A DNA stretch of 64,000 nt, from positions 9,055-73,054 of IMG/VR virus record IMGVR_UViG_3300011398_000004, one strand, 5' to 3'. The notes beneath the pieces were generated by a model. That model was given only the letters and a program-made list of their open reading frames with translations. It did not search any database and was not told the origin of the DNA. Below, piece after piece: positions 11,644 through 60,692 of the stretch. This DNA comes from a virus. Within the stretch, counting starts at the first letter, position 1. Every line of letters begins with the position of its first letter. The position numbers and the translations under genes were made by a program.

Positions 11644-12027
11644 ATGAAATTCGATAACAAGATTGAAGCGATCAAGGCTCTCCGCAACATCCCTCGTGGA
11701 ACTGCGGAGATCTCAATTGCTACCGGCAAGCCTACGCTGGTAGTCAGTGGCGGTGGTCTGGGTTTCAAGGAGGCCAAGGATCTCGTCGAAGCCATCTGCG
11801 AGATGGGTGTCCAATATCATCTGTCTCGGCAGCGTAATGACATTCTGCGTGAATTCTTGCAGACCGAGCTCGCCAAGCTCCCCGCTCCGCCGTCCAACAT
11901 CCCCAACTGCAATCGTTGCGGGAATTCTCTCGTGGACCAGTTCTCGGCTCAGCCCTGCCAGACCTGCTGGGACAAGGAGCAGGATCGTCTGCGAGAAGCG
12001 CAACTCGACGATGACATTCACTTCTAA
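11644..12027 (+). CDS. ribosomal protein L7/L12 C-terminal-domain-like protein, first gene of the high-GC island
   Basis: AAGGAGATAACGCG then ATG. [11 protein letters not shown]...[16 protein letters not shown] matches the L7/L12 CTD core ([24 protein letters not shown]). High-GC codon usage unlike the flanking phage genes. Confidence 0.5.
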   Translation: [127 protein letters not shown]

Positions 12028-12314
12028 TGGTGACAGTCATCGTCATCCTAACCGTGTTTTTCGCGATCCTGCTAATGGTGGTAGGAGTTCCTCTTCTTCT
12101 CTTATGGATAGTCCGTAACTCTATCCAAGCGGCCAAGTATCGCGCTCTTGTTCATGCATCCTCGCAAGTAAGAACTGGATACACGATCGTTTACAAGAGC
12201 GGAAGAAAGACAGAGAAGATGGATCTTGATGGGGCCACGGAAGGAGAGGCCATGATGGATCTTGTCAAGAGGAAGGTCTCCTATGACAAAATTATTTCTT
12301 TAACGAAGAAATAA
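12027..12314 (+). CDS. small membrane protein (one TM helix)
   Basis: TAATG overlap with upstream gene; VIVILTVFFAILLMVVGVPLLLLWIV. Confidence 0.45.
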   Translation: MVTVIVILTVFFAILLMVVGVPLLLLWIVRNSIQAAKYRALVHASSQVRTGYTIVYKSGRKTEKMDLDGATEGEAMMDLVKRKVSYDKIISLTKK

Positions 12315-12400
12315 TAAGAACAAATCTGCTGGCTGCGCCGTGCTATATTACTACTGGCGCAGCGCATACCGCGCGAGCCACATAAAGGAGATAGGAAGAT

Positions 12401-12634
12401 ATGGGAGAGCCAATCAAAATGGAGCATATTCTGGCTCCTGCCGCAAAGGTCAAAGTGGCCTACGGCAACTGGCGCGAGACTTCTCTCGCGCTTGCTCCTG
12501 CCGAATTCAAGGCAGGCACTCAAATCGTCGGAACTTGCGGCTCCTGCTTGGAAGTCGTGGCCGCTGTCAAACTCAAACTCGTGCGTCTCCCCTTCGGGCG
12601 TGGGGAAGCGTGGAAATGCGAGAACTGCCGATGA
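12401..12634 (+). CDS. zinc-ribbon protein (CGSC...CENC)
   Basis: AAGGAGATAGGAAG then ATG at 12401. Confidence 0.45.
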   Translation: MGEPIKMEHILAPAAKVKVAYGNWRETSLALAPAEFKAGTQIVGTCGSCLEVVAAVKLKLVRLPFGRGEAWKCENCR

Positions 12635-12903
12635 TATTTCCACGCTGGAAACGTCGTTCCCATACAGCCAACGTCGCTGATCCCACACAGGTCACTGTGT
12701 GGGAGTTCGGCAAGCGTAACTTCCAAATCTCGCTCGTTGCCTCATGGGGCGTCGAGGCGAAGATTTACTTCATGGGCCGGAAGTTCTGGTCCTATGACGC
12801 GTGGTGGGCAATTCGTCTGTATGACTTCCTCGAGAACCAGTGGGAAGCTCAGCAGATGGATTACGAGGAAGACCCGATGGGTCGGTTGTCGGATTACGAA
12901 TAA
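12616..12903 (+). CDS. hypothetical Trp-rich protein
   Basis: Internal Met of ORF 12340..12903 (MRELPMIFPRWKRR...), overlapping the end of the upstream gene. The upstream part of that ORF looks like GC-driven read-through. Confidence 0.35.
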   Translation: MRELPMIFPRWKRRSHTANVADPTQVTVWEFGKRNFQISLVASWGVEAKIYFMGRKFWSYDAWWAIRLYDFLENQWEAQQMDYEEDPMGRLSDYE

Positions 12904-12916
12904 GGAGATAACGAAG

Positions 12917-13165
12917 ATGAGAAAACGCCAACAGGAGCTGTTCTTCGAGGACAGTTCCTGGAAAGGCTCGAATACCGAGCGTGATGTTATGAGATCCTTC
13001 GAAGCTGCTGGTCGGGAGACTGACATCAGTCACAATGAGCCGTTACCAGAGCGTCGGCGGCATCTGATGAAAGTCGTCTGCCTCGAGTGCTCGACGAAGT
13101 TTACGACGAGATCGCACATCCCGTCGTGTCCCGGCTGTGGAGGTTCGGATATCGAACTTCGGTGA
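12917..13165 (+). CDS. zinc-ribbon protein (CLEC...CPGC)
   Basis: TAAGGAGATAACGAAG then ATG; MRKRQQELFFED...VVCLECSTKFTTRSHIPSCPGCGGSDIELR. Confidence 0.45.
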   Translation: MRKRQQELFFEDSSWKGSNTERDVMRSFEAAGRETDISHNEPLPERRRHLMKVVCLECSTKFTTRSHIPSCPGCGGSDIELR

Positions 13166-13346
13166 ATTTCCGTGATCCTCGTTCGTTTGGACTACAGATA
13201 TGATCTCGCGGCGGTGCCCAAGACCCCGGCTGAACATATCAAGTGCCTGAACTTTCGATAACTTCGAGAGCGGGACGTAGGAGAACTTCTTTGAACTTGA
13301 TAGAATTAAGAACCTTTGAGCTTTTGAAAAAGAGCAAAATAAGATA

Positions 13347-13375
13347 TTGCAATCTTGCGGCGAGCGTGCTACGCT
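13347..13375 (+). promoter_or_regulatory. promoter TTGCAA-N17-TACGCT inside the island
   Basis: TTGCAAtcttgcggcgagcgtgcTACGCT. The -10 is the same type as the phage early promoter family. Confidence 0.35.
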
Positions 13376-13452
13376 GCATTACACGGTGCGGGTGCAATTC
13401 AGCACCCCACCACACGTCGTCAATCAGCGGCAGATAGAGAGCAGAGTGTATC

Positions 13453-13905
13453 ATGAGCAGGAATCAGCGCGGTGGTGGAGTTCAGGAGCAGGAGAAGCCG
13501 GAGACGGAAGTCGCGGTCGAGACCACGGCTGTCGCGGAGAAGGCCAATCGCACGGCGTTCTTCCATTCGCCGCATCCGAAGGTCGGGCAGGCGTCGCGGG
13601 TCAGCTACACGATCCCCGGCGTCTCGGGCAATATCGTCATCTTCCTCAGCATGTTCAAGGACGGCGTCGCGCCTCCCACGCTGACGTTCGATGTCGACCT
13701 CGCGGAGCCGAAGGCGGACGGGAAGCAGGCCAAGGCGGAGGCCGCGGCGCTCAAGGCTCAGGAGAAGGCCGAGAAGGCGCAGGCGCGTCTCGTCGCTCAG
13801 CAGGAGAAGGCGGTGGCGATCGCGGCCAAGGCGCAGCAGGCGTTGGACGCGGCCAAGGCTAAGGTCGGGACGGCGGAGCCGAAGACCGAGGAAGTCACGT
13901 CGTAG
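13453..13905 (+). CDS. hypothetical protein with Ala/Lys/Gln-rich C-terminal coiled-coil or histone-H1-like tail
   Basis: ORF track. Overlapping Arg/Leu-rich ORFs on other frames are GC artefacts. Confidence 0.4.
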   Translation: MSRNQRGGGVQEQEKPETEVAVETTAVAEKANRTAFFHSPHPKVGQASRVSYTIPGVSGNIVIFLSMFKDGVAPPTLTFDVDLAEPKADGKQAKAEAAALKAQEKAEKAQARLVAQQEKAVAIAAKAQQALDAAKAKVGTAEPKTEEVTS

Positions 13906-13962
13906 AGCTCGGATTCTGGTTGCAACCGATGGTATGATCGGTTGCAGTCTAGACGCTCGGAG

Positions 13963-14005
13963 ATAGCCGCAGAGCACTCTCCCTCTGCGGCTATTCTTTT
14001 GTTCT
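13963..14005 (+). terminator. rho-independent terminator closing the island operon
   Basis: Perfect 12-bp stem ATAGCCGCAGAG/CTCTGCGGCTAT, 8-nt loop, then TCTTTTGTTCT. It is preceded by a second hairpin at 13919-13947 (TTGCAACCGAT/ATCGGTTGCA). Confidence 0.55.
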
Positions 14006-14102
14006 AATTCATCTTTTCATTGATCGGACGGACTTCATAGGTAATGAATCTCCTCAGTTAGAGATTCATCCTTAAGATTAGATGTGCTATAATCTTCTGC
14101 GT

Positions 14103-14149
14103 ATCAATGAAAAGATCCTTTACTTCTTATCATTGATCTTTTCATTGAT
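14103..14149. promoter_or_regulatory. operator-like inverted repeat ATCAATGAAAAGATC, 17-nt spacer, GATCTTTTCATTGAT
   Basis: Two perfect 15-bp arms; the same 15-mer recurs at 11090 and 14011. Confidence 0.45.
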
Positions 14150-14221
14150 CGCGACGATCGGATGGATCATATCTAAGATCCTCTTTGATCAGTTACAGAT
14201 CGCTCATCGCGGCGCGGCTCC

Positions 14222-14252
14222 AAATGTACGAAACCGTACATTGTACGAAACC
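14222..14252. repeat. direct repeat GTACGAAACCGTACA, two copies
   Basis: gtacgaaaccgtacattgtacgaaaccgtacatgg. Confidence 0.4.
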
Positions 14253-14254
14253 GT

Positions 14255-14432
14255 ACATGGCACGGCATATGCTATAGCATATACCATGCCATGCCATAGT
14301 GTCATATGGCACGGTTTATGCTATAGCATAAACCCTGCCATGTCATAATACCGTATGGCATAGGATATGCTATAGCATATCCCATGCCATACCACGGCAT
14401 AGCATGGCACGAGGTATGCTAATAGCATATAC
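14255..14432. repeat. array of four copies of the 14-bp perfect palindrome TATGCTATAGCATA (one copy has a 1-nt insertion) at roughly 48-bp spacing, interleaved with GGCATGG/CCATGCC motifs
   Basis: Read directly: catatgctatagcatatacc, tttatgctatagcataaacc, atatgctatagcatatccc, gtatgctaatagcatatacc. Non-coding; the overlapping ORF 14082..14348 is spurious. Confidence 0.5.
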
Positions 14433-14769
14433 CATACCACATACACGCATACCAATATGTGCATGTGGCATGGTATATGCCCTTTGTACACCTAAAACCC
14501 TGTAAGTGTAGGTGTCTCAATAATAGGTCAAAACCCGTCTAAGGGGCAAACGAGCACCCTAACGGGTGCTGGCATGGCATGGCGGGTGCTACTCACCACG
14601 GGGCTAGGAATGGCAAATAGGGCATATGTCACTTTGTGTCACAAAGTAGCACCCGACACTATGTATCTACAGATATTTTGCGGCACCCTTACGATTTATG
14701 TTGCATTGACCTATATATATGTGCCATACTACGGGTTACTGCAATACCGCAGTGTATGAGAGTAGGTCA

Positions 14770-15433
14770 TATGACAAGAGCAGAGAAAAGAGCAGCCGCT
14801 AAGGCTGCTACGCTGGACACCGTAGCCAACAGCATGTTGGCTGCCGAAGTGGCACCCGCCGAAGTGACACCCGCCGAAGTGGCACCCGCCGAAGTGGCAC
14901 CCGCCGAAGTGGCACCCGCTACCATCCTGCCATTGTGGCTCAGTGCCATACTGGCGTCATTCGCTGGCAGTATCGGCAGTGCATACGCCGTCATTTGCAC
15001 TGGCTATGCCACGTCACCCGCGCGGGTGAAATACAGCATCACGGGACGTGGTGACGCCATTGTGGCGGTACTCTCCCACTTCGTGACACTGCCCCTGCAA
15101 GGTTCGCTCTTGAACCTGTACCCGACGGACACGGAAGTACCGGGGCATACGCTGCACTACGCTGGCGCTAACAGTGTCGGCCACACGTACCGCCTTAGCG
15201 GACACAAGGGTACATGGGTGTTTCGTGGTACGGCCCTTGCGATGCTCGGCACCGTACCGCCTGCCATGCTGCTTTGTGACGTGCCATTGTTGGGCGATAT
15301 CCGTACCGCCAATCTCACCACACCCGAAGCACTCAAGACACCGCACGGACTCACGGTACACAGTGCCATACTTGAAGTAGTGGCACCCGTCGAAGTGGCA
15401 CCCGTCGCACCCGTGGTGCCCGATGCCACGTAG
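14770..15433 (+). CDS. hypothetical protein with (PAEVA)x5 tandem repeat and hydrophobic segments
   Basis: 15-bp DNA tandem repeat gccgaagtggcaccc x5 at ~14848-14922; partial repeats again at the C-terminus (VAPVEVAPVAPVVP); high GC. Start chosen at ATG 14770, since the upstream part of ORF 14636 lies in lower-GC sequence. Confidence 0.4.
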
Positions 15434-15642
15434 GCGCATCACGCTAACACCCGATGGGGGTTTATCCCTCATGGTGTTAGGTGTGGTGTACGTGCTACTG
15501 CTCTTATACGTGTCACGCTAGGCACGTACCGCGCCACGTCACCCGATGCCACTGTGTACCAGTAGCGGTACACAGTGGCATCATAATGTACAGGCATAAG
15601 CCGTGCCACCCCCCAAAAGTGTAATCACGGCTGGCGCGGACG

Positions 15643-36424: not shown

Positions 36425-36706
36425 ATGTTGAGAATATTAATTCTATTCATTTTCATATTAGTTAGCATTGCTACACCGACAGGACAATTTTCAACTCCTC
36501 CGGGACAGAGAATTCTTGCAAAAACTGGTCTAAGTGAATTTATTATAATTGAATATAACGCATTCGAAAATAAAATTAGACTTAGTTCTAAAGTAGATTT
36601 TGCCGATGTAAAGATTACATTTGAGGATATATCAGATCAAACTGTGACGGTTAAAGAATTGAGACAGTGGGTAAAAGCTCAGTATAAACCAGGACCAATA
36701 AAATGA
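36425..36706 (+). CDS. hypothetical protein with N-terminal TM or signal segment
   Basis: ORF track. Confidence 0.4.
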   Translation: MLRILILFIFILVSIATPTGQFSTPPGQRILAKTGLSEFIIIEYNAFENKIRLSSKVDFADVKITFEDISDQTVTVKELRQWVKAQYKPGPIK

Positions 36707-36846
36707 GTCTATTACTTATCATCCTTATTCTTCTCCTATTATTCGGTGGCGGAGGATTCTATCTACAAGGACCTGCTGTCGGTGGTGGAATAGTAGGAGT
36801 TATCCTTGTAATTCTTGTAGTTCTTCTCCTATTAGGAAAGTTATGA
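36703..36846 (+). CDS. 47-aa double-TM hydrophobic peptide (holin-like or small membrane protein)
   Basis: Hand-translated MSLLLIILILLLLFGGGGFYLQGPAVGGGIVGVILVILVVLLLLGKL; ATGA overlaps on both sides. Confidence 0.3.
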   Translation: MSLLLIILILLLLFGGGGFYLQGPAVGGGIVGVILVILVVLLLLGKL

Positions 36847-47373: not shown

Positions 47374-47772
47374 ATGGAAATTAAATTAGGACAATTAGTC
47401 CAAGCTGAAGAAGTTCTAAATACGATTGGTAAGCAATCTGTATCTATTAAGACTGCTTATCATCTAGCTAAATTAATGAAACTTGTAAAAGAAGAAACTT
47501 CTATTTATCATCTTAAGAGAGAAGAATTTATAAAAGAATTAGGTGAAAAAAGAGAACCTACAAAAGAAGAATTAGCAAAAGGTGTAAATGGTGAAATATT
47601 CGAAGTTGCTAAAGATAAAATACCAGAATTCGTTAAACAAATAAATGAATTGTCAGAAATTTCAGTCACAATTGATAAATGGTTATTATTAACATTAGAA
47701 TTATTAGAAAATATCGATATATCTGCGCAAGATGTCTTATTCCTCGATAGTTTAATTATCGAAAAAGAATAA
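47374..47772 (+). CDS. hypothetical protein
   Basis: ORF track. Confidence 0.4.
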   Translation: MEIKLGQLVQAEEVLNTIGKQSVSIKTAYHLAKLMKLVKEETSIYHLKREEFIKELGEKREPTKEELAKGVNGEIFEVAKDKIPEFVKQINELSEISVTIDKWLLLTLELLENIDISAQDVLFLDSLIIEKE

Positions 47773-49820
47773 TGGCTCCGTATTACTCAATCGCAATCGA
47801 AGCTGCACTCGATACTGATGAAGGATCCTTTAATATTCGTTCATTCGATTCTGATACTTTCGATGTCGTAGAAAATGCTCTTGATTTAAATGCAATGGCT
47901 TCTCAAGGACTAAGTTTAAAATATGGAATAGAAGGAAATGGTCCTTTAGATCGTGTTGCGTCTACAGGAACACTTTCATTCACATTAAGAAACGATGCTC
48001 TTGCTACAGAAGGTCAAGGATGTTTCTCTCCAGGACATCCTAATGTATGTGAAGGATGGACATTTGGAATTAGAACTCAAGTTATATTTACTTTCCTTGG
48101 GATAAATTATATTAAATTCTTTGGCAAGATAGACACAATAGATCCTGATGCTGGAATGTATTCCTCGAAGAAGGTTCATGTAGTAGCTTACGATTATATT
48201 AAAGATTTAGTAGAATCTGATGTTCGAGAGATAGCTACTCAAATAGATAAAACGGAAGCTGAATTAATTGACTTAATTCTAGATAGTTTACCAGATGAGA
48301 GTCAACCATCAATACGTGATATTGATACTGGTATAGATACATTTCCTATCGCATTAGATAATTTAGGTGAAGGTGTTCCTGCGCTTACTGTTATTCAAGA
48401 TCTTGCAGTCAGCTCTCTTGGTTATGTATTTATAAAAGGTGATGGAACATTTTGTTATCGAACTCGTCACAGTAATACAATTGGAGTCAGTCAATTCTCA
48501 TTTGATAATAATATGCACGAATTAGTAGTACCATCGTCTTTAGAGAATACATTCAATTTAGTAAGAATAGATATTCATCCAAGATCAGTATCTGCTAGTC
48601 CAATAGAAGAATTATATAGTCTTCCATTCGAGAGTTCTATTACACTAGAATCTCTTGAAGTACGTGAACTTGAAGTACAGTATACAGATCCAAATGATCG
48701 AGAAACTTCAGTTGGAGGATTGGAGATTGTTACGCAATTAGTTCCTGGAGTTCATTATAAAGCAAGTACCGTAAAAGATGGGCATTCCTTTGGAACGAAT
48801 AATAGTACAGGAACAACTGTTATCGGAGTCAATCCAATAGGTACAACGGTAATCGCCGTTACTTCTGTAGCTCCTGTCTCTACTGATATTGTTTCAAATT
48901 CTATAGCTAATCCTTCAATTGTAACAACTACTGGAGCTCATGGGTTAACAACCGGGCAAAGTGTCACAATTTCTTCTGTAGTAGGATCTAGTCCTACAAT
49001 AAATGGTCAGAGAATTATTACCGTTCTTTCACCTACTACGTTTTCCATTCCTGTATCGGTAACTGTAGCTGGAACGGGTGGAAGAGTCACAAAATCTACT
49101 GGATCATTTCTTTCTCGTGATATTATTTCCATCGGTGGTAATACCTATACTGTAGTAAGTACAGTCGGTGGGCAGACTCCTACTTCTATTACGATTGAAG
49201 AACCAGGATTAATCGCTGCAACAACAGTCGGACAACTTGTTACTCTTTCTGCTGTAGGAGTTGACATTACAGATGATATAACTGCTGTATTGACTCCATA
49301 TAGTTCTAATGCTAAATTTCTATTGACTAATACAGGAGGATCTACAGCTTATATTATTCTTCTTAAAGTTATAGGAAAAGCTATAAGAGACCCAGGACCA
49401 CAAACTGTTATATCAGCAGATATACATCCTCCTGGTACTGATACGAGAAGAGTTAGACCATTAGATATAGATTTACCTTATCAAGATGATATTAATGTTG
49501 CACAATCAGCAGCAGATACAATCTGTCAGATATATGAACTTACTGAAGGACAAGTATCATCTATTTCATTTTTAGCCATAACTAATGATTTAATGATTCA
49601 AGCTCTAGAACGTGAACCCGGTGATAAAATTACTATCACGGAAGAAATGACTGGATTAATTTCTGTTATAGGTCTAATTCAATCTGTATCACTAGATATA
49701 CAGTCAAATAATGTTCTTGTATGTACATGGGGATTATCTCCTACAAGTTCTTCTGAAGTTTGGTTATGGGGAATTGCTGGTCAATCTGAGTGGGGAGAGA
49801 CTACTTACTACGGATTTTGA
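47772..49820 (+). CDS. tail-associated/baseplate protein with an Ig-like domain shared with the tail tube protein
   Basis: 682 aa; the segment NPSIVTTTGAHGLTTGQSVTISSVVGSSPTINGQRIITVLSPTTFSIPVSVTVAGTGG is paralogous to the C-terminus of 38099..39064. Confidence 0.45.
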   Translation: MAPYYSIAIEAALDTDEGSFNIRSFDSDTFDVVENALDLNAMASQGLSLKYGIEGNGPLDRVASTGTLSFTLRNDALATEGQGCFSPGHPNVCEGWTFGIRTQVIFTFLGINYIKFFGKIDTIDPDAGMYSSKKVHVVAYDYIKDLVESDVREIATQIDKTEAELIDLILDSLPDESQPSIRDIDTGIDTFPIALDNLGEGVPALTVIQDLAVSSLGYVFIKGDGTFCYRTRHSNTIGVSQFSFDNNMHELVVPSSLENTFNLVRIDIHPRSVSASPIEELYSLPFESSITLESLEVRELEVQYTDPNDRETSVGGLEIVTQLVPGVHYKASTVKDGHSFGTNNSTGTTVIGVNPIGTTVIAVTSVAPVSTDIVSNSIANPSIVTTTGAHGLTTGQSVTISSVVGSSPTINGQRIITVLSPTTFSIPVSVTVAGTGGRVTKSTGSFLSRDIISIGGNTYTVVSTVGGQTPTSITIEEPGLIAATTVGQLVTLSAVGVDITDDITAVLTPYSSNAKFLLTNTGGSTAYIILLKVIGKAIRDPGPQTVISADIHPPGTDTRRVRPLDIDLPYQDDINVAQSAADTICQIYELTEGQVSSISFLAITNDLMIQALEREPGDKITITEEMTGLISVIGLIQSVSLDIQSNNVLVCTWGLSPTSSSEVWLWGIAGQSEWGETTYYGF

Positions 49821-49840: not shown

Positions 49841-50236
49841 ATGTCATATACACCTCCTCCCGCAGTAACGACAGGACAATTGGCTACAGCTAGTGATTAT
49901 AATACTTATGTCAAAGACAATATTATAGCATTACATAGATTCTGGACTATTCTGGATAAATCTGGTACGTATGCAGTAACTCCTGCTGACGTGAATCTTC
50001 GGACCATTATTCAATGTACTGGTACATTCGTTTTATCTTTACCCGCTGCGAATAATGCTTCTATAGAAGTTCCTGTGAATGGACTTCGTATAGTTAATAT
50101 TGGAACAGGTGTTATCACGTTAACACCGACTTCACCTAGTACAATTATAGGAGCTGCTACATTCACAGTAACTATTCAATATCAATCATTAGAAATTATA
50201 CCTGATTCAGCTACTAATGATTGGAGAATCTTCTAA
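49841..50236 (+). CDS. hypothetical tail protein
   Basis: ORF track. Confidence 0.4.
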   Translation: MSYTPPPAVTTGQLATASDYNTYVKDNIIALHRFWTILDKSGTYAVTPADVNLRTIIQCTGTFVLSLPAANNASIEVPVNGLRIVNIGTGVITLTPTSPSTIIGAATFTVTIQYQSLEIIPDSATNDWRIF

Positions 50237-50766
50237 TGTTTCTTCCATCGTTATATAAATCATTACAGAAAATTGTTGTTACAAATACAACAACTCTTCC
50301 TCTAGATGTTACCATAGCATCAGTAGACACTAACTATACAAGAATTTCTACGCAAGGAGCAGAATTATATCATTTTTATAGATTTAGAATAAATCTAACA
50401 TCTGCCACAAATGTGAGATTTCATGATTTTCATAATTCTTCAGGAAATCCTGGTCTAGCTGCACGTACGACACTCGTAGTTGAAGAATTTGTAGGACTCT
50501 TCTTTCATCAACCATTTTATTATGGTTCTATCACATTAGCAGAAACAGTGGTAACTAATAATGTAAACACAGGATTAACTCTCCATTCAAAAGCATTTCT
50601 AGTATCATTAGGATTTGAAGTCACATTTAATCAGGCACTAGCAGCACCGTTTGAAACAACAGCAGATCTTGCTTTAAGTGGATCTACTGTAACTGCAACA
50701 AGAACACATGCTAATAGCAATGTAGGTAATTTAATCTGTGGATTCATTCTTATAGATCCAAAATGA
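50221..50766 (+). CDS. hypothetical tail protein
   Basis: ORF track. Confidence 0.4.
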   Translation: MENLLMFLPSLYKSLQKIVVTNTTTLPLDVTIASVDTNYTRISTQGAELYHFYRFRINLTSATNVRFHDFHNSSGNPGLAARTTLVVEEFVGLFFHQPFYYGSITLAETVVTNNVNTGLTLHSKAFLVSLGFEVTFNQALAAPFETTADLALSGSTVTATRTHANSNVGNLICGFILIDPK

Positions 50767-51278
50767 CTAGTCCTATTTGGCTTAACGTCATGCGATTCGC
50801 AGAAGGTCTCCAAGAAATTCCTGGGCCTAAAAGTAATCCTGTCATCTTAAATTGGAATAAGATGATAAATGGCCCTAAGTGGTATGATAATGATGATAAA
50901 CCGTGGTGTGCTCTTGCTCTTAACGCTGTTCTTTCTGTTTGTGGTCTCCCACTAGCTGTAGGGAATTCCATCCCTCTCGATAAATATGATTTATTAAGAG
51001 CGAAATCATTCGAGACATGGGGACATGCCATTGCTATCCCCACCCTCGGATGCATCATGACTTTCAGTCGTCCTGAAGGTCATCATGTAGGATTATATCG
51101 AGGGGAACGTAAAGACGCTTATTATATTCTTGGCGCTAATCAGTCGAATACAATAGGGTCTGTATGGATTTTAAAGAAGCGTCTTACATCAATACGTTGG
51201 CCTGTTAATGTTGAGATGGTTAGTACAGGACGAATTTGGCTTACAGATAGTGGTGAAGTATCTACTAATGAAGGATAA
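50763..51278 (+). CDS. NlpC/P60-CHAP-like cysteine peptidase (TIGR02594-type)
   Basis: KPWCALALNAVL for the candidate catalytic Cys and GHHVGLY for His, as in the phage TIGR02594 peptidase family. Confidence 0.5.
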   Translation: MTSPIWLNVMRFAEGLQEIPGPKSNPVILNWNKMINGPKWYDNDDKPWCALALNAVLSVCGLPLAVGNSIPLDKYDLLRAKSFETWGHAIAIPTLGCIMTFSRPEGHHVGLYRGERKDAYYILGANQSNTIGSVWILKKRLTSIRWPVNVEMVSTGRIWLTDSGEVSTNEG

Positions 51279-51280
51279 TT

Positions 51281-52108
51281 ATGAGTTGGTTTAGTAGTCT
51301 ATTTCGTTGGACTAGGAGAAAAATAATGCCGTCACCTACATTTATTAAAGCAGCAGCAGGACTTCAATGTGGGTTCGGTGATTTTCTTGGTCCTGAATTA
51401 TTGAATGATATAAAAAATCAGGGATTTACCATTTTACGATTAGATATACAAGAAGTATCACCGCAGAAAGGGGATGCTCTAGCTCAAGAAGTTATAGATG
51501 CAGGGATGCAGCCATTATGTATCGTTCGTTATGCTGAACAATTGAAACATCTACCTAAAGGAACTTTAGCCGAACTCGGTAATGAGCCAGATATATCATC
51601 CAATAAATGGATTGTGGAATCGTATACAAGAGAAGCTTATCGTTGTGTCGAAGAAGCACTTAAATTAGATATGCGTCTATATCTAGGTGCAGTAAGTAAT
51701 CTACATAAACGTGGTTTTGACTTCTTACAGAAATTACCATGGAATTCATGGCCGTCTGCTTGCTGTAGTGTTCATCGATATCCAGATGGGAATTCACCTT
51801 TAAATGCCCATAAAGGAAGCTCTTCACGAGAGGAAGAAATTAAACGTCTTCGTGATATTATTGGGTATAGTCGTCCTATCGCGATTACTGAAGTAGGATA
51901 TCACGATACACAAAATGGTTGGTCGCCAGAAGCAGTTGCAAATCATATGGAATGGGAACGAAAATTTTTCAGTAACCAAGGAATAGAGATTGTAGTTGCC
52001 TATCAGTTGAATGATGGAAATGATAGTTCAATTGACGCACATTTTGGTTTTCGCAATTCTTCATATGAATGGAAGCCAGTTGCAAAATCATTTACTGAAG
52101 CAGTCTAA
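51281..52108 (+). CDS. clan GH-A (GH5-like) glycoside hydrolase
   Basis: LGNEPD (acid/base NEP motif) and IAITEVGYHD (nucleophile TE motif) at the spacing expected for a TIM-barrel glycosidase. Confidence 0.45.
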   Translation: MSWFSSLFRWTRRKIMPSPTFIKAAAGLQCGFGDFLGPELLNDIKNQGFTILRLDIQEVSPQKGDALAQEVIDAGMQPLCIVRYAEQLKHLPKGTLAELGNEPDISSNKWIVESYTREAYRCVEEALKLDMRLYLGAVSNLHKRGFDFLQKLPWNSWPSACCSVHRYPDGNSPLNAHKGSSSREEEIKRLRDIIGYSRPIAITEVGYHDTQNGWSPEAVANHMEWERKFFSNQGIEIVVAYQLNDGNDSSIDAHFGFRNSSYEWKPVAKSFTEAV

Positions 52109-52116
52109 AGGACATT

Positions 52117-53802
52117 ATGCCTAATACCAATCCACCGTGGCCTCCTGAAAGAGATGAACAGTCAATTAGATTCTGGGAGAAATTACAGACAAGATATGAT
52201 AGAGGAAATATAGATTTCATAGGGGCAGTCCGATGGCCTTCCGAATTTCGTATGCACATGGCGAATGGAATATCTGAAGATAATACATGGATTACAATTT
52301 CGAATGCGATTGATGCAATACGCTCAGGAAGACAACCAGACCCAACATTACCAGGTCCATATGATCTTCCATGGGCACCTGAGATGGACAGAGATTGTGA
52401 ACCATTTATTAACGCACTTCGAGGAACTTATCAGAACGAACATCCTAATAAACCACAATCTGTAGATGCAATTGGTTATGTTCGTTGGGGCAGTGAATTC
52501 CGTATGCATCGCGCTAATGGAATGAATCTTGATGAAGCATGGGAAGCTGTTCTACAAGAAATTCGTAAAATATGGCGTAGTCAGATGCCAGTTCCTGTAA
52601 CGGATAATCGTCCTTTTATAGGATCACTCCGTATAGAAAACAAACTATTCCGAGATGATGCAGGATATCGTCGTGTCTTTTTTACATCCTGGTTCCCAGC
52701 TCTTCGTATACTTCGGGACGATCCGAATGAATTCTATCGTCAGTTGGATGAGATTGTAAAAGCAGGATATCAAGGGATTAGGATTTTCCTCGCTGTAGGT
52801 GGTTGGTCTGATTTCTGGGACGGACGTGAAGTAGTTCCTATTACATTCCAGAAATGGTGGTATACTGGTAATATGCTTCGTAGTGATCGTTACGGAGATA
52901 TTCTTCAATCATGGCCAAATTACGATGTTCTACTCAGTGAATTATTAGATGCTTGCATTGCTAGGAATATACGTCTCCATATCACTGTAGGTGACTTTCA
53001 AATAATCTGTAAAGATCCTACAATAGAATTAGAATTCCATCGTAAAGTCTCTTCTATCTGTAAACAAAAAGGTGGAACGACTGTAATAGCCTTTGTCGAA
53101 GCTACGAATGAATTCCCCATTAATAGACATGGAAGTGATAGTCCTTCGTCTATCGAACAGATGGGACGTGTATTAAAAATATGGTCTGATGCAATTCCAG
53201 GGATATTAACGGGGCAAGGTGCAATCCCTCAAAATGAGGAACCAGCTTCTCTTCGTTTAGCATCTACTCATGGAAATGTATGTGTAGTGCATACGACTAG
53301 ATCACCTTTCCAAATGAATCTTAAACGAACTTTTGGATTAGTTTATTGGGAAGGAGATTATCGAGGATTTCCTAAACCATTCTGGCAGGGTGAACCTGCT
53401 GGTCCAGGATATGATTCATTTGACCCAATGAATGATCCTGCTGCTCTTACAGCACTCTACGCTATGCACGCTCTCACTGGACAGGCAAGCAATCAATTTG
53501 CTGGTCCTTCAGTTCGATCCCTCGAACCATTAGAATCTGTATGGGGATTCCGTGAACTTCCTAGATTATTTGCCAAGCATCTACCAGAAGATGTAGCTAC
53601 ATGGGAACATGGTAACAATCGCTACGGTGGAATTGAATATTGGTGGAAGAATAATATCTTTGTGACATCTACTTGCAAAGATTGGGATCCTTCTCCTCCA
53701 CGCAATATTGCTGAATGGACATTATATTCAGGAGATAATGTCTCAAATGGAGCAGGGACACCTCCTCGTGGTACTGGATTATTAACCGGTCGTTTCTTTT
53801 AA
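52117..53802 (+). CDS. two N-terminal ~70-aa tandem repeats plus a GH-A-like catalytic domain
   Basis: Repeats IDFIGAVRWPSEFRMHMANG...AIRSG and VDAIGYVRWGSEFRMHRANG...IRKIW; catalytic region FVEATNEFP. Confidence 0.45.
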   Translation: MPNTNPPWPPERDEQSIRFWEKLQTRYDRGNIDFIGAVRWPSEFRMHMANGISEDNTWITISNAIDAIRSGRQPDPTLPGPYDLPWAPEMDRDCEPFINALRGTYQNEHPNKPQSVDAIGYVRWGSEFRMHRANGMNLDEAWEAVLQEIRKIWRSQMPVPVTDNRPFIGSLRIENKLFRDDAGYRRVFFTSWFPALRILRDDPNEFYRQLDEIVKAGYQGIRIFLAVGGWSDFWDGREVVPITFQKWWYTGNMLRSDRYGDILQSWPNYDVLLSELLDACIARNIRLHITVGDFQIICKDPTIELEFHRKVSSICKQKGGTTVIAFVEATNEFPINRHGSDSPSSIEQMGRVLKIWSDAIPGILTGQGAIPQNEEPASLRLASTHGNVCVVHTTRSPFQMNLKRTFGLVYWEGDYRGFPKPFWQGEPAGPGYDSFDPMNDPAALTALYAMHALTGQASNQFAGPSVRSLEPLESVWGFRELPRLFAKHLPEDVATWEHGNNRYGGIEYWWKNNIFVTSTCKDWDPSPPRNIAEWTLYSGDNVSNGAGTPPRGTGLLTGRFF

Positions 53803-53805
53803 AGG

Positions 53806-54270
53806 ATGATTATGTTGAAACTATTTTTATTCTTCTTGATCTCTATATTCATTGCATGTGGACCAAAACTCCCACCGGACATCTCCTTCGAGGGGAAGAT
53901 GGCTGTTCGTGGAACTCAGGTCATTGCAGCTCTCCGAACAACTCTACCTGCTCTTAAACAGGCTACGTGTCAACCAGGAGTTGTTCAACCATGTTTAGCT
54001 CCTGCGGATACTGATAAGGTCGTAGCCCATATTCAGGAAGCTAGTAAACTCTCTCAAGAGCTGGCATTAGTATTAGTAGCAATCGATGAAGCTCAAACAG
54101 CCGCATTACAAGAATCTGGTTTTACCAAAGCTAAATTGATATTAACTTCAATTCAAAATTCTTTAATGCAAGCTTCTATAGCACCTAGTGAAGAAAATGG
54201 ACGACAAAAGGTCGTTGAGATTCTAGGAACAGTTATCAATCTTCTTGTCGCCGTTCTTTCATTCCAATAG
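53806..54270 (+). CDS. lipoprotein (lipobox LISIFIAC)
   Basis: MIMLKLFLFFLISIFIACG signal peptide with lipobox. Confidence 0.5.
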   Translation: MIMLKLFLFFLISIFIACGPKLPPDISFEGKMAVRGTQVIAALRTTLPALKQATCQPGVVQPCLAPADTDKVVAHIQEASKLSQELALVLVAIDEAQTAALQESGFTKAKLILTSIQNSLMQASIAPSEENGRQKVVEILGTVINLLVAVLSFQ

Positions 54271-54278
54271 GAAATCAA

Positions 54279-54503
54279 ATGGATTATCTAACAACAATTA
54301 ATTCACTTGTCACTTTAGCAGTTCAGTCTATTAATGCTGCTCGCGCAGTACGAGATGCTTCTCGTAATGCAAACCCTACTGTAGCAGAATCAGAATTTCC
54401 ATCTGATTTTGATCTGATCAAGAAATTTTTAACGGAAGCTCAGTTGCTAGATAAAGAGTCTTCAGAACTCCGGGAATGGCTCAAGACATTACAGGAGACG
54501 TAA
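54279..54503 (+). CDS. hypothetical protein
   Basis: ORF track. Confidence 0.35.
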   Translation: MDYLTTINSLVTLAVQSINAARAVRDASRNANPTVAESEFPSDFDLIKKFLTEAQLLDKESSELREWLKTLQET

Positions 54504-54573
54504 CTTATTGATGGGACGGGAGTTTCTCATAGGGGGAATATGAGGATCCCCATTGATAAGACGTAACAAGGGC

Positions 54574-54605
54574 GGATAGGGTGTGGCTTCCCTATCCGTT
54601 CCTAG
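54574..54605. terminator. bidirectional hairpin terminator between the convergent gene blocks
   Basis: GGATAGGG/CCCTATCC 8-bp perfect stem, 8-nt loop. Confidence 0.45.
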
Positions 54606-54612
54606 TTCTTAT

Positions 54613-54879
54613 TCATCTTCGATCTATGACAATACCTAGACCTAAGATTCTAGCTTCGAGGATGGAACGGTCTAACTTAGCCTGTAGTAAGCGAGCACTA
54701 CATTCTGTAGCTAATTCTTCCACAGATTTCAATTGACACGATAGAATGTCTCGATATCGAGTGATGTCCTTTGTACTCTGATTACTATAATCTTGAATCG
54801 ATTGTTGAGTAATCATCTCGAATTTTGTCATTCGACGTTCTTTAACCTTCGGTTTACGTGACGCAGTTTTCTTTTTCAT
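54613..54879 (-). CDS. hypothetical protein
   Basis: ORF track. Confidence 0.35.
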   Translation of the reverse strand: MKKKTASRKPKVKERRMTKFEMITQQSIQDYSNQSTKDITRYRDILSCQLKSVEELATECSARLLQAKLDRSILEARILGLGIVIDRR

Positions 54880-55376
54880 TTATCTTCCTCATTAAATTTT
54901 CCGTCTTTTCCTCTTGGTTGTAATATGTGACTATCTTTATAAGCACCTCTTTCTATTCTTTTATGATGATGTTCTTTTACGTGTTCAGTTTCATCTTTAG
55001 GCTCAAGATTATCTGGATGATCATTTAATCTATTTTCATCTATATGATGAGCGATTTCATTTGGTAAAAGTAATCTTCCAAGTTTTTCTTCTAAATTAAT
55101 ATCAGCACGTTTAGCGTATGGAAACCATGACTTACGATGATAATCAGGCTTATAGATTAAGAAATATCCATTTCTAATTATTTCTCCTCCTTTCCAATTA
55201 GGATTATCAATTCCAAATTTATCTTTTCTTGTTAGTTTTTCTCTTTGAAGAATTAGACCAATAATTCCTTTTCCTACATGAAGTTGTTTGGCAATGTCAG
55301 AAATCTTTTGACCAGATGTATATAGACTTATTACCTCCTTCTTTAAAATATCGTAATCTTGGCGACTTCTAGTCAT
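54876..55376 (-). CDS. HNH endonuclease
   Basis: EIAHHIDENRLNDHPDNLEPKDETEHVKEHHH. Confidence 0.6.
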   Translation of the reverse strand: MTRSRQDYDILKKEVISLYTSGQKISDIAKQLHVGKGIIGLILQREKLTRKDKFGIDNPNWKGGEIIRNGYFLIYKPDYHRKSWFPYAKRADINLEEKLGRLLLPNEIAHHIDENRLNDHPDNLEPKDETEHVKEHHHKRIERGAYKDSHILQPRGKDGKFNEEDK

Positions 55377-56227
55377 TCATCCTCCCAATGGTCGAATCGA
55401 GGATGACGAAAATTCATATCTGGCGTTTTCTCTTGAAATTCAATTCGGAGTTTTCTACCGATAGCTGGATGTATTTTATCTGGGATAGCTTCTTTCTCAA
55501 GTTTACGGCATTCCTCGTCATTACGAGTTTTTACTGTAGTTACGACTCCGTTACTATCATCCCGTAGGATGATTGTAGCATATGGCCCTCTGTCATTGAT
55601 TAATCCTCGACTAGGCTGAAAACCAATTACAGTTAGAACGGCAGATTGAAGCTTTTTGATTTTTATCCAATCCTTTGAACGTTTGTGTTGGTAGACAGCA
55701 TTACGTCTCTTTAGAATAAGCCCTTCTCCGTCTCGAGCCCAAACTGCATCTCTAAGAGCATAAACTTCGTCCATTGTATTGACGTTAGTCGAGGGATTTA
55801 ATACGACGGAAGACGTTTTAACCGACTTAAATAGTTCCTCTAGGATCATTCGACGTTCAAATTGCTTCAAGTGAGTAGTCGGTTGATTTGCTATGCTAAT
55901 TACATCGAAAACACAAAAGACGAGATCGGGAAGATTGGTGAGCTCAACTGCACCATAACTACGTTTCCCCTCGACATAGATCTCTCCATCTAAAACGGAC
56001 TCAGGAAATTCGCTTAGATCCTCCATGATATGGGTAGGGAGAGGATGAATTTTCTGTAATCGAGACCACGGTGTAATCTTACGTTTGGTGAAGAGATTCG
56101 AGGAACCAGTCTCGATCTCGCATTCGATACGGATTCCATCTACTTTTTCCTCTGCACTGTATTCACCAGGATTCAGGATAAATCCTGGTTTCATCGGATG
56201 AGCAAGCATTACCTTTTGAAATGCCAT
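55373..56227 (-). CDS. ATP-dependent DNA ligase (minimal, 284 aa)
   Basis: Motif I EEKVDGIRIE (KxDGxR), motif IV DGEGLILK, motif V DWIKIKK. Confidence 0.6.
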   Translation of the reverse strand: MAFQKVMLAHPMKPGFILNPGEYSAEEKVDGIRIECEIETGSSNLFTKRKITPWSRLQKIHPLPTHIMEDLSEFPESVLDGEIYVEGKRSYGAVELTNLPDLVFCVFDVISIANQPTTHLKQFERRMILEELFKSVKTSSVVLNPSTNVNTMDEVYALRDAVWARDGEGLILKRRNAVYQHKRSKDWIKIKKLQSAVLTVIGFQPSRGLINDRGPYATIILRDDSNGVVTTVKTRNDEECRKLEKEAIPDKIHPAIGRKLRIEFQEKTPDMNFRHPRFDHWEDE

Positions 56228-56888: not shown

Positions 56889-57587
56889 TTACGTGATTTT
56901 CCATACCCTGTCCGTAATTTTCTGGTAAGTTCCTAAGAGCTCCTGATATATCCTCTTGACTAAACGCTTAAGAGGATCATTAATCATCGTCCAGATAAGA
57001 CTCCACGGCCAATACGTAATCCATGATAAGAATCTTGTTTTATGCCTACTGGGATCAGTCTTAGCATGTGTCATATAGACATCCCATCTATCCATATATT
57101 CTGGAGGAATGTTTGTTCCTTTAATACTGTGATGTTCTATAAATCTTTCCTTCGTTAATTGGAATCTATTCGTCTCAGAAAACCACCATTTAACTATAGA
57201 CCAGATAGCACCAATTACAAAATATCCTAAGAAGATTTCAATAGCAATCCATGGATGATCCCATAGATAAGTAAATGGTTTATTTTCACTAAAGAATTCA
57301 AATGATAATAAGATAGCGATTAATAAAATTGTGGAAATACCAAAACCAAAATCATCATCTTCATGATCTAAAGTCCAACATAAAACGCAAGAATATAAGA
57401 ATAAAAGAATCCAGAAAGGGGTAGTCCCTATGACTAATACAGTAGCTAGAATAGCGAATAGAGGAGCACCCCAAGTAATTAATCCTCCGATTATCAAAGC
57501 TAGAACGATTAAAACTAGCATTATTTCTATCATAGTTTCCTTCATATGAAAATAGCCGTGGAACCTACTGCAAGTTCCACGGCTCAA
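56889..57587 (-). CDS. polytopic membrane protein (at least 4 TM), downstream partner of the vault-protein homologue
   Basis: 10-nt gap after the MVP-like gene; multiple hydrophobic helices. Confidence 0.5.
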   Translation of the reverse strand: MSRGTCSRFHGYFHMKETMIEIMLVLIVLALIIGGLITWGAPLFAILATVLVIGTTPFWILLFLYSCVLCWTLDHEDDDFGFGISTILLIAILLSFEFFSENKPFTYLWDHPWIAIEIFLGYFVIGAIWSIVKWWFSETNRFQLTKERFIEHHSIKGTNIPPEYMDRWDVYMTHAKTDPSRHKTRFLSWITYWPWSLIWTMINDPLKRLVKRIYQELLGTYQKITDRVWKIT

Positions 57588-60078: not shown

Positions 60079-60106
60079 TTTATCCTTTCCGTCATTAACG
60101 AAGAAG

Positions 60107-60190
60107 TGCGAAGGGAGGGACTCGAACCCTCATGATCTTACGATCGGGAGATTTTAAGTCTCCTGTGAATGCCAATTCCACCACCTTCGC
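60107..60190 (-). tRNA. tRNA-Leu (anticodon UAA), type II with long variable arm
   Basis: Reverse complement GCGAAGGTGGTGGAATTGGCATTCACAGGAGACTTAAAATCTCCCGATCGTAAGATCATGAGGGTTCGAGTCCCTCCCTTCGCA. 7-bp acceptor stem, 3-bp D-stem, anticodon stem GGAGA/TCTCC with loop CTTAAAA, T-arm GAGGG-TTCGAGT-CCCTC. Confidence 0.8.
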
Positions 60191-60607: not shown

Positions 60608-60619
60608 GTCTATTCAAAG

Positions 60620-60692
60620 TGGGCCATCTTGGACTTGAACCAAGAACCACTCGATTATGAGCCGAGTGCTCTGACCATTGAGCTAACGGCCC
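60620..60692 (-). tRNA. tRNA-Met/Ile2 (anticodon CAU), elongator type
   Basis: Reverse complement GGGCCGTTAGCTCAATGGTCAGAGCACTCGGCTCATAATCGAGTGGTTCTTGGTTCAAGTCCAAGATGGCCCA; anticodon loop CTCATAA; the anticodon stem lacks the three G-C pairs typical of initiator tRNA. Confidence 0.8.

Follow-up and report, generated by a model that had tools for sequence, protein, structure and literature searches.

A Five-Gene Cluster at the End of a Phage Late Operon Joins a Probable Endolysin to Two Predicted Clan GH-A-Like Glycosidases

RESULTS AND DISCUSSION

The g1-to-g5 cluster at the 3' end of a phage late operon

The subject of this analysis is a cluster of five genes, here termed g1 to g5, in a stretch of viral DNA of 64,000 nucleotides (IMG/VR record IMGVR_UViG_3300011398_000004, positions 9,055 to 73,054). 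This stretch as a whole is called the window below, and coordinates refer to it unless another locus is named. The window is phage DNA with genes for the large terminase, the portal, the major head protein, and a tape-measure protein of 1,528 amino acids (aa), and the phage is siphovirus-like. Two independent assemblies, one of an ENA metagenome and one from Logan, contain this contig, for which a JGI source is also listed. The 3' end of its late operon consists of five tightly packed plus-strand open reading frames (ORFs) at 50763-54503, which directly continue the tail-gene operon, are separated by intergenic gaps of -4 to +8 nt, and have Shine-Dalgarno-like sequences upstream of g2, g3, g4, and g5. 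An earlier note on this DNA, made from the letters without database searches, had described a cluster of three hydrolases following the tail genes and ending in a lipoprotein gene; the four ORFs in question are all present on the plus strand. The features of the cluster are as follows.

50763-51278, + strand: g1, 171 aa; TIGR02594-family Cys/His peptidase (NlpC/P60- or CHAP-like), probable endolysin
51281-52108, + strand: g2, 275 aa as called; predicted single-domain clan GH-A-like glycosidase
52117-53802, + strand: g3, 561 aa; predicted modular clan GH-A-like glycosidase
53806-54270, + strand: g4, 154 aa; conserved lipoprotein, alternative start at 53812
54279-54503, + strand: g5, 74 aa; small helical protein, constant partner of g4
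54570-54601, + strand: terminator-like hairpin of 12 pairs, 7 of them G-C, with a weak T tract (CTAGTTCTTA); a match to the consensus only

The hairpin sits between the late operon and a set of convergent minus-strand genes.

g1, a peptidase that most likely serves as the endolysin

The g1 product scored 74.6 bits against the NCBIfam model TIGR02594 (curated cutoff, 70.55), with the match running from position 2 to position 132 of the 132 in the model, and it also matched the C-terminal domain of PHROG 1259 ("baseplate hub subunit and tail lysozyme") with an E value of 5e-20. The earlier note had assigned g1 to a TIGR02594-like family on the strength of a WCALAL cysteine and a GHHVGLY histidine, and the score above the cutoff bears out this assignment. 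Both residues also hold up in comparison: W48-C49 (PWCALAL) and H108 (GHHVGLY) are invariant with respect to three homologs, namely, one from a metagenomic locus (L024; L numbers denote the loci of homologs throughout), the "lysin A" of Brevundimonas phage Delta, and a protein of Klebsiella phage BUCT711. The catalytic candidates, chosen by conservation, are as follows.

50907-50909, + strand: g1 Cys49
51084-51086, + strand: g1 His108

Homologs of g1 are present in 544 GenBank phage records, and the hosts tallied all belong to Gram-negative genera. In Klebsiella phage vB_KpnP_BUCT711, whose TIGR02594 protein is 36% identical to g1, the gene order is holin-holin-TIGR02594-DUF2514, where DUF2514 is Rz-like, which would make this the canonical slot for an endolysin. 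Because the TIGR02594 protein fills the slot between the holins and DUF2514 in this phage, g1 is most likely an endolysin, with a predicted role in peptidoglycan cleavage. The epsilon15-like phages (Uetakevirus, BUCT711) thus resemble the window in having TIGR02594 in the endolysin slot; however, BUCT711 has recognizable holins and no glycosidases there, whereas the window has two predicted glycosidases and no recognizable holin.

The extreme C terminus of g1, VSTNEG (51260-51278), lies past the end of the TIGR02594 model and is kept as VS[TV]NE[AGS] in three aligned homologs, two of them from cultured phages. A match of g1 residues 141 to 165 to designed "Pizza" propellers in PDB was discarded as spurious, as no stretch passes alone.

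With regard to the host, the homologs of the portal (~33% identical) come from phages of Alphaproteobacteria, Xanthomonas, and cyanobacteria, and a genome scan recovered one small phage-like contig labeled as a proteobacterial metagenome-assembled genome. Taken together, the hosts of phages with TIGR02594 proteins, the g4 lipoprotein (see below), and the portal matches make a diderm host probable.

g2 and g3, predicted TIM barrel glycosidases with conserved catalytic glutamates

Neither g2 nor g3 matched any entry in Pfam, PHROG, NCBIfam, or the PDB sequences. A scan of all of their homologs (39 for g2 and 61 for g3) retrieved accessory domains only, with no Pfam glycosidase threshold reached. 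The g2 homologs gave nothing beyond single stray Pfam hits (E = 0.04 to 0.15) and stayed below the thresholds of glycoside hydrolase (GH) families GH5 (PF00150), GH39 (PF01229), and GH128 (PF11790), while PF13204 (Apiosidase, GH140/DUF4038) had no match in g3 or any of its 61 homologs even at E <= 1. Searches of the PDB sequences with phmmer and with profiles recovered nothing for g3 and only sub-threshold GH39 and GH5 hits for g2. In these hits (E = 0.1 to 0.17), the NEP motif of g2 falls opposite that of two known enzymes, a GH39 xylosidase and a GH5 cellulase, in which this Glu is the acid/base. There was no protein match to either gene among GenBank phages. The homologs are metagenomic: a word-seeded search yielded 40 clusters for g2 and 127 for g3, and an exhaustive profile search found 792 g3-family clusters at 50% identity (E <= 1e-3). 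A scan of IMG/VR with the g3 sequence alone had no match; one seeded with a tighter alignment (A3) yielded g3 homologs.

AlphaFold2 models built from the homolog alignments reached pLDDT values of 94 (g2) and 92 (g3), and both are (beta/alpha)8 TIM barrels whose structural neighbors all belong to clan GH-A, the 4/7 superfamily of retaining glycosidases. The nearest folds to g2 are in the GH39/PslG group, including the exopolysaccharide hydrolase PslG, and those nearest to g3 are the GH140 apiosidase/DUF4038 fold (best match, 7% identity) and GH5 mannanases. Sequence identities to the structural neighbors are 7 to 18%, and the specificities of these neighbors are too varied to be transferred to g2 or g3. 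Among the predicted viral structures in BFVD, the closest to g3 are uncharacterized proteins of uncultured phages along with a few proteins annotated as "cellulase" or "glycosyl hydrolase."

The likely true start of g2 is Met16 (51326), which is preceded by a strong AGGAGA Shine-Dalgarno sequence, matches the N termini of homologs, and is chosen by other gene callers; from this start, g2 is a bare single-domain barrel of ~260 aa. The two motifs that had been read in the earlier note as bearing the catalytic glutamates of g2, LGNEPD (E98, N101, E102) and ITEVG (E204), are invariant in 39/39 homologs and fall in the model where clan GH-A would require them, with N101-E102-P103 following strand beta4 (residues 96 to 99) and E204 within strand beta7 (residues 200 to 205). 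Arg53 on beta2 and His165-x-Tyr167 on beta6 are likewise conserved in all 39. In g3, for which the earlier note had named a NEF-type catalytic region, the TNEF motif (N331, E332) after beta4 is invariant in 61/61 sequences, and E426 after beta7 is present in 60 of the 61, the only exception being a truncated fragment. Arg222 on beta2 and His392 after beta6, also invariant, complete the catalytic signature of the clan. The predicted catalytic residues, from model and conservation, are as follows.

51584-51586, + strand: g2 Glu102, predicted acid/base
51890-51892, + strand: g2 Glu204, predicted nucleophile
53110-53112, + strand: g3 Glu332, predicted acid/base
53392-53394, + strand: g3 Glu426, predicted nucleophile

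An alignment of the two families with hhalign returned a probability of 0.8%, and the notion that g2 and g3 are paralogs was accordingly rejected at the depth detectable. The assignment of both to clan GH-A is founded on predicted structure and conserved catalytic residues, because no curated glycosidase profile matched them. The earlier note had looked to profile matches and residue conservation as the signs that would tell for or against these hydrolases. This expectation holds fully for g1, which has both, but only in part for g2 and g3, whose residues are conserved and for which no curated glycosidase profile was matched. On this footing, g2 and g3 are predicted to be unclassified clan GH-A-like glycosidases, set apart from the profile-defined families tested (Pfam, PHROG, and NCBIfam).

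Modular architecture of g3 and the exchange of its N terminus

Unlike the bare barrel of g2, g3 is modular, with two copies of a three-helix module ahead of its barrel and a beta-sandwich behind it.

52138-52365, + strand: repeat 1, residues 8 to 83; three-helix module of ~75 aa with the motif IGxVRWxSEFRMHxANG
52372-52599, + strand: repeat 2, residues 86 to 161; second copy of the module
52609-53592, + strand: catalytic (beta/alpha)8 barrel, residues ~165 to 492; from the order of secondary structures in the model
53605-53796, + strand: C-terminal beta-sandwich, residues ~497 to 560; from strands in the model, pLDDT ~98

The tandem repeat proposed in the earlier note was recovered as two copies of ~75 aa whose self-alignment scored 122, against 26.8 +/- 5.2 (maximum, 60) in 500 shuffles. 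In the model, the helices of the first copy span residues 14 to 26, 34 to 49, and 54 to 69. Homologs carry the module in one or two copies, and a profile of 17 such units had no match in PDB or Pfam. The barrel is the conserved core of the g3 family, with ~71% of the query covered in most homologs, and the beta-sandwich conserves W523, G545, G547, and P550.

The N-terminal region is widely replaced among g3 homologs, by two other modules of ~80 aa, by a beta-trefoil (DUF7910, Fascin, FRG1), by a B_lectin domain, by a lipoprotein signal with CarboxypepD_reg, or by a plain signal peptide. The B_lectin module resembles that of the putidacin L1 family of lectin-like bacteriocins. Exchange of this kind would be expected for a targeting module. 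Because lectin-type modules take their place in homologs, the three-helix modules would be the targeting part of the protein, and it is plausible that the N-terminal repeats of g3 are binding or targeting modules. A related exchange is seen in locus L036, a relative of the P0079 phage (P numbers denote clusters of homologs), where the order is TIGR02594, a 550-aa enzyme (5335-6987), a holin-like part joined to g4, and g5. This enzyme, marked by an ANEPE motif and matching GH5 only weakly, differs from both g2 and g3; its N terminus is of the B_lectin (putidacin-like) type and by eye is nearly identical to the module of a g3-family cluster, P0019. As judged from these sequences, the binding module has been kept in L036 and the catalytic domain exchanged.

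Export signals add a further element. A lipoprotein signal of the PROSITE type begins the g3 homolog of L018 (P0070, which occurs on 20 contigs), and canonical lipoboxes are present in its relatives P0060, P0074, and P0082. Such signals do not fit assembly into a virion and point to a substrate outside the cytoplasm. Distant cellular homologs bear plain signal peptides and have nonphage neighbors (L019, near GH20 and Apiosidase). A closer homolog of g3 (56% identity) is encoded at 10001-11443 of L001, a bacterial contig of 549 kb with 66% GC. It has a PYPDE-type N-terminal module and no signal peptide; its neighbors are ordinary chromosomal genes (a TonB-dependent receptor, TctABC, and MacB), the 10 kb to either side being free of phage genes, and it may be a domesticated copy or a remnant.

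Gene neighborhoods and fusions link the glycosidases to lysis genes

Neighborhoods of g3 homologs were gathered from several collections, and the neighbors were classed by precomputed Pfam hits, our own profile searches, and NCBIfam. A peptidoglycan hydrolase lies no more than two genes upstream of the g3-family gene in 10 of the 15 phage loci (the window included) with enough upstream sequence, L029 being the weakest of the 10; as a rough expectation, a random gene in a genome of ~60 genes would have such a hydrolase at this distance only a few percent of the time. This small upstream hydrolase comes from four different families, and g2 is often placed between it and g3. Representative orders are as follows.

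Window: TIGR02594, g2, g3, g4, g5
L024: TIGR02594, g3, protein with two hydrophobic segments, g4, g5
L015, L018, L029: GH108, g3 (in L029, only a weak GH108-like match)
L013, L035: Hydrolase_2, g2, g3
L004, L014: Peptidase_M15_4, (g2), g3

These loci range from 40% (window) to 66% in GC content, and both temperate contigs (L004 and L018, with integrases) and nonintegrating ones are represented. L015, which comes from the same ENA series, is related to the window phage, but GH108 stands there in place of both the TIGR02594 gene and g2 of the window; a DNA ligase (PF01068) of L015 in a position equivalent to that in the window supports this kinship. Lipoproteins, or small proteins bearing hydrophobic segments, are encoded beside g3 in L004, L005, L014, L016, L017, L024, and L035. 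A 164-aa protein encoded upstream of the L016 fusion (see below) was considered as a lytic transglycosylase because of a "QES" motif, but it matched no peptidoglycan hydrolase profile and was dropped from the count.

Fusions of g2, a beta-trefoil, and the g3 catalytic domain in a single polypeptide were found in at least eight clusters (P0041, P0044, P0095, P0100, P0105, P0181, P0237, and P0250). The two checked for context, L016 6193-8667 and L017 7229-9670, are both in phage contigs. These fusions suggest that the two enzymes act together.

g4, g5, and the search for a holin

The lipoprotein that the earlier note had placed at 53806 is clearly recognizable: g4 has a signal peptide and a FIAC lipobox with Cys18 (53857-53859; MIMLKLFLFFLISIFIAC), which is kept in four homologs in the forms MLAC, FTAC, and LAGC. 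Two further cysteines, Cys55 and Cys63, are invariant. A C-terminal helix (residues 134 to 154) with a conserved NVTALLFAV motif attains a peak 19-residue hydropathy of 1.97; this helix includes Glu and Asn residues, lacks charges on its flanks, and runs to the C terminus, and it is marginal as a transmembrane domain. The family is small (15 clusters), and in L015, L016, L024, L035, and L036 its members come after a glycosidase that is of the g3 family or analogous to it. In every neighborhood examined, a g5 homolog follows directly downstream of g4. The g5 protein has a conserved C-terminal helix (ELREWLKT; alignment A5) and a weakly hydrophobic N-terminal helix (~1.0 by hand calculation, with a scan threshold of 1.5); the N-terminal segment passes the hydropathy threshold in two of the four homologs examined (L015 and L016). 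Neither g4 nor g5 had a significant match in Pfam, PHROG, or NCBIfam, and g4 had no sequence match to spanin families.

Among spanins (such as lambda Rz/Rz1 and the unimolecular T1 gp11), the closest known arrangement is that of the unimolecular or u-spanins, which combine an outer membrane lipoprotein signal with a C-terminal transmembrane domain, as in T1 gp11, and of which the 58 catalogued have a beta-rich periplasmic domain and no periplasmic cysteine (PMC6139136). g4 is similar in its lipoprotein signal, hydrophobic C terminus, and place at the end of the lysis cluster, but it differs in its two invariant periplasmic cysteines, its short and partly polar C-terminal segment, and its constant association with g5. 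Judged by topology and gene order, g5 could resemble either an i-spanin or a holin in function, and g4 and g5 together may be regarded as spanin-like candidates only.

No classical holin had been noticed near the cluster in the earlier note, which pointed instead to a small double-segment peptide at 36703; we likewise found no recognizable holin and no small hydrophobic ORF in or adjoining the cluster, and the distant ORF does exist. It encodes 47 aa (36703-36846, + strand) with two very hydrophobic segments and a Gly-rich turn between them, and it overlaps a 93-aa ORF with an N-terminal hydrophobic segment (36425-36706, + strand) in the middle of the head-tail module. These two ORFs (36425-36846) might supply the missing holin or antiholin, but nothing links them to lysis. 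A 232-aa multipass protein (56889-57587, - strand) is a further candidate. For the small membrane proteins beside g3 homologs, PHROG gave a single weak holin hit (E = 0.004), and we therefore call these neighbors only holin-like by topology.

In L013 (9859-10551) and L036 (7001-7759), a single ORF combines a two-segment holin-like part, a complete internal lipoprotein signal, and the g4 domain, while in L016 and L024 the same holin-like and g4 parts are encoded by separate adjacent genes. The joined ORFs are either true fusions or the result of unrecognized internal starts.

A possible extended lysis module and the alternatives to it

On the basis of these observations, we favor, as somewhat the more probable view, the interpretation of the cluster as an extended lysis module that closes the late operon of a phage with a probable diderm host and in which accessory soluble glycanases would act on a glycan other than peptidoglycan. 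This corresponds to one of the two possibilities raised in the earlier note, an unusually elaborate lysis cassette, and is preferred in view of the occurrence of g3 downstream of four hydrolase families in unrelated phages and of its membrane protein and lipoprotein neighbors. Under this interpretation, the cytoplasmic membrane would be permeabilized first, and g1 would then cut the peptides of peptidoglycan. Having no signal peptides, the copies of g2 and g3 in the window would gain access to the envelope only once the membrane had been permeabilized. As a pair, they would hydrolyze a nonpeptidoglycan glycan of the envelope or surface composed of sugars with a free 2-OH, g3 being directed to its target by its two N-terminal three-helix modules, and g4 and g5 would act as membrane-proximal partners of these enzymes, perhaps as spanin equivalents. 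Hydrolysis of the glycan would complete the breakdown of the envelope and free the progeny, in an application of the logic of LysB (see below) to a polysaccharide.

Several lines of evidence bear on the predicted nature of the substrate. Enzymes of clan GH-A use the Asn that precedes the acid/base Glu to form a hydrogen bond with the 2-OH of the sugar in the -1 subsite, a group absent from GlcNAc and MurNAc. Lectin-like bacteriocins of the putidacin L1 type bind rhamnose-containing lipopolysaccharide. Thus, the varied endolysin partners, the requirement of the GH-A Asn for a 2-OH, and the lectin type of the swapped modules all disfavor peptidoglycan as the substrate. Further, with partner endolysins that include both peptidases and enzymes of the muramidase type, g3 does not appear to complement one particular peptidoglycan bond.

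We would extend this interpretation, tentatively and with more doubt than confidence, to the proposal that g2 and g3, with g4 and g5, form a fourth lysis step in some diderms, in which a load-bearing nonpeptidoglycan glycan of the envelope would have to be cut, such that infected cells lacking the glycanases would stall unlysed.

Several observations weigh against a role in lysis. A hydropathy scan found no protein with transmembrane segments and no holin ORF at 49.8 to 54.6 kb, and the two-segment proteins of the relatives had no homolog in the window by tblastn; labels such as "holin-like" and "spanin-like" refer to hydropathy and topology. A recognizable endolysin is lacking just upstream of g3 in 5 of the 15 loci, namely, L005, L007, L017, and L021, where none was found, and L016, with its 164-aa neighbor; the contigs themselves are metagenomic and some are mutually related, and hence they are not fully independent. 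The presence of homologs outside phages (L001 and L019) indicates that the g3 family is not intrinsically of lysis function. Finally, g2 and g3 follow the tail genes in the same operon, and large tail-like genes, one of which codes for a beta-helix, stand on both sides of the module in L035.

The alternative that survives best, which we nevertheless judge rather unlikely, shares with the extended lysis module all of the evidence for soluble, nonvirion, late-expressed glycanases beside lysis genes and differs in what they would be for: the enzymes would be dispensable for rupture and would degrade capsule, exopolysaccharide (EPS), biofilm, or receptor glycans after lysis, aiding spread or destroying receptors. 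The beta-trefoil and B_lectin modules suggest surface polysaccharides, in keeping with this role, and PslG is among the best structural neighbors of g2. On the other hand, the homologs with lipoprotein signals (L018 and kin) would be tethered in the envelope before lysis and better fit an internal target, and the strict position of the glycosidases between the endolysin and g4/g5 resembles a functional unit.

The last two points against lysis given above, the continuity with the tail operon and the setting of the L035 module, are also those that would be expected if g2 and/or g3 were virion-associated depolymerases attached to the tail, cutting capsule, EPS, or O-antigen at adsorption with the repeats serving to bind. 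Moreover, a few annotated phage glycosyl hydrolases have the same fold. Tailspike and tail-fiber depolymerases are virion components, typically trimeric beta-helices with an N-terminal particle-binding domain; like them, g2 and g3 are phage-encoded, predicted glycan-cleaving enzymes at the distal end of the tail module. However, they are modeled as TIM barrels, with neither a trimeric beta-helix nor a recognizable tail-adaptor N terminus, and g2 is a bare barrel of 260 aa with no part for attachment. In addition, the N termini of homologs are interchangeable with lectins, lipoprotein signals, and plain signal peptides, and the constant neighbors are endolysins and membrane protein or lipoprotein genes rather than tail fibers. 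We therefore regard attachment to the virion as improbable.

Less probable still is that g2 and g3 are extra peptidoglycan glycosidases that cut the glycan strands and form, with g1, an endolysin set directed at several bonds. They do adjoin the endolysin, and the three-helix modules recall, by resemblance only, the helical peptidoglycan-binding domains of modular Gram-negative endolysins. Yet they are also found together with GH108 and with Hydrolase_2 enzymes of the SleB type, whose own target is the glycan, the invariant Asn-Glu of g2 and g3 implies a 2-OH at the -1 sugar, and profile scans of g2, g3, their homologs, and the module gave no PG_binding or lysozyme-family match. No clan GH-A enzyme is known to be a muramidase.

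A role as auxiliary metabolic genes, by which the phage would redirect the carbohydrate metabolism of its host or draw on polysaccharide from the environment with no bearing on lysis or entry, is very improbable: viral GH5-type enzymes have been discussed in such terms (10.1101/2024.12.20.629349) and distant secreted cellular homologs lie near GH20 and Apiosidase (L019), but the enzymes of the window have no export signal, and their fixed place in lysis modules and coinheritance with g4/g5 would be unexpected for metabolic genes.

Comparison with known accessory lysis factors

The mycobacteriophage protein LysB, an esterase with a cutinase-like alpha/beta-hydrolase fold, has as its substrate the mycolyl-arabinogalactan of Mycobacteriales. 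It is a second, nonpeptidoglycan hydrolase beside the endolysin LysA and strips an extra layer of the envelope by which the cell would still be held together (10.1101/2025.06.24.661397). g2 and g3 are likewise proposed to be nonpeptidoglycan hydrolases beside an endolysin in a lysis cassette; they differ in being clan GH-A TIM barrels by model, in their probable diderm hosts, and in having no homology to LysB. LysZ of corynephages and mycobacteriophages is a lysis cassette factor required to overcome the barrier posed by the glycopolymers LM and LAM (preprint, 10.1101/2025.06.24.661397). It provides a precedent for envelope glycans as load-bearing obstacles to phage lysis, but it is a helical membrane protein of Mycobacteriales phages with no glycosidase fold and has no sequence or structural relation to g2 or g3.

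Our literature search turned up no account of lysis cassettes that contain glycosidases of the GH-A type. The accessory lysis enzyme is a known concept; what would be new is the two, possibly three, unclassified families of predicted GH-A enzymes.

Other features of the window

Convergent with the cluster, the region 54876-56227 (- strand) codes for a 166-aa protein that is HNH endonuclease-like by motif (HHIDENRLNDHPDNL) and for a 284-aa protein that is like ATP-dependent DNA ligases, with a KVDGIR motif. A scan of the window with Rfam found two tRNA genes, tRNA-Leu(TAA) and tRNA-Met(CAT), at 60106-60190 and 60619-60692 (- strand), and no further match.

Upstream of the cluster, the 682-aa tail protein at 47772-49820 (+ strand) is 51 to 53% identical to the product of L016 1620-3224, a phage contig of 62% GC as opposed to 40% for the window. 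This likeness suggests that related structural and lysis modules are shared across base compositions. The protein also holds a sub-threshold E1_FCCH-like stretch (E = 4.6e-6). At the DNA level, the region 50000-55000 had no match among GenBank phages.

At ~12000-15500, GC is 0.49 to 0.55 compared with ~0.40 elsewhere, and long ORFs overlap on both strands. Tandem repeats in this region comprise units of 49 bp x 3.7 (14257-14439), 15 bp x 5.1 (14843-14919), 17 bp x 2 (14225-14258), and 15 bp x 1.9 (15379-15407). It may be a noncoding or iteron-type region or a foreign insert.

Implications

The lysis of Gram-negative hosts by phages is usually told as three steps, carried out by holin, endolysin, and spanin, and accessory envelope-degrading lysis factors are known mainly for Mycobacteriales, in the form of LysB and, recently, LysZ. 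The predicted glycanase slot between the endolysin and the membrane protein genes recurs in many uncultured phages of soil and freshwater, often as a fused pair, and its contents amount to two uncharacterized families of predicted clan GH-A enzymes, with a third in the same slot, equipped with swappable modules of probable targeting function. Such enzymes might find use as probes for envelope glycans, as adjuncts to enzybiotics, or in the degradation of biofilms, and their setting is a caution against labeling viral "cellulase-like" genes as auxiliary metabolic genes. More broadly, the slot suggests that a polysaccharide barrier to lysis or to the release of progeny exists in some diderm hosts. 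If the glycanases do carry out a fourth step, they would reveal a structural polysaccharide layer where none is now thought to be mechanically important.

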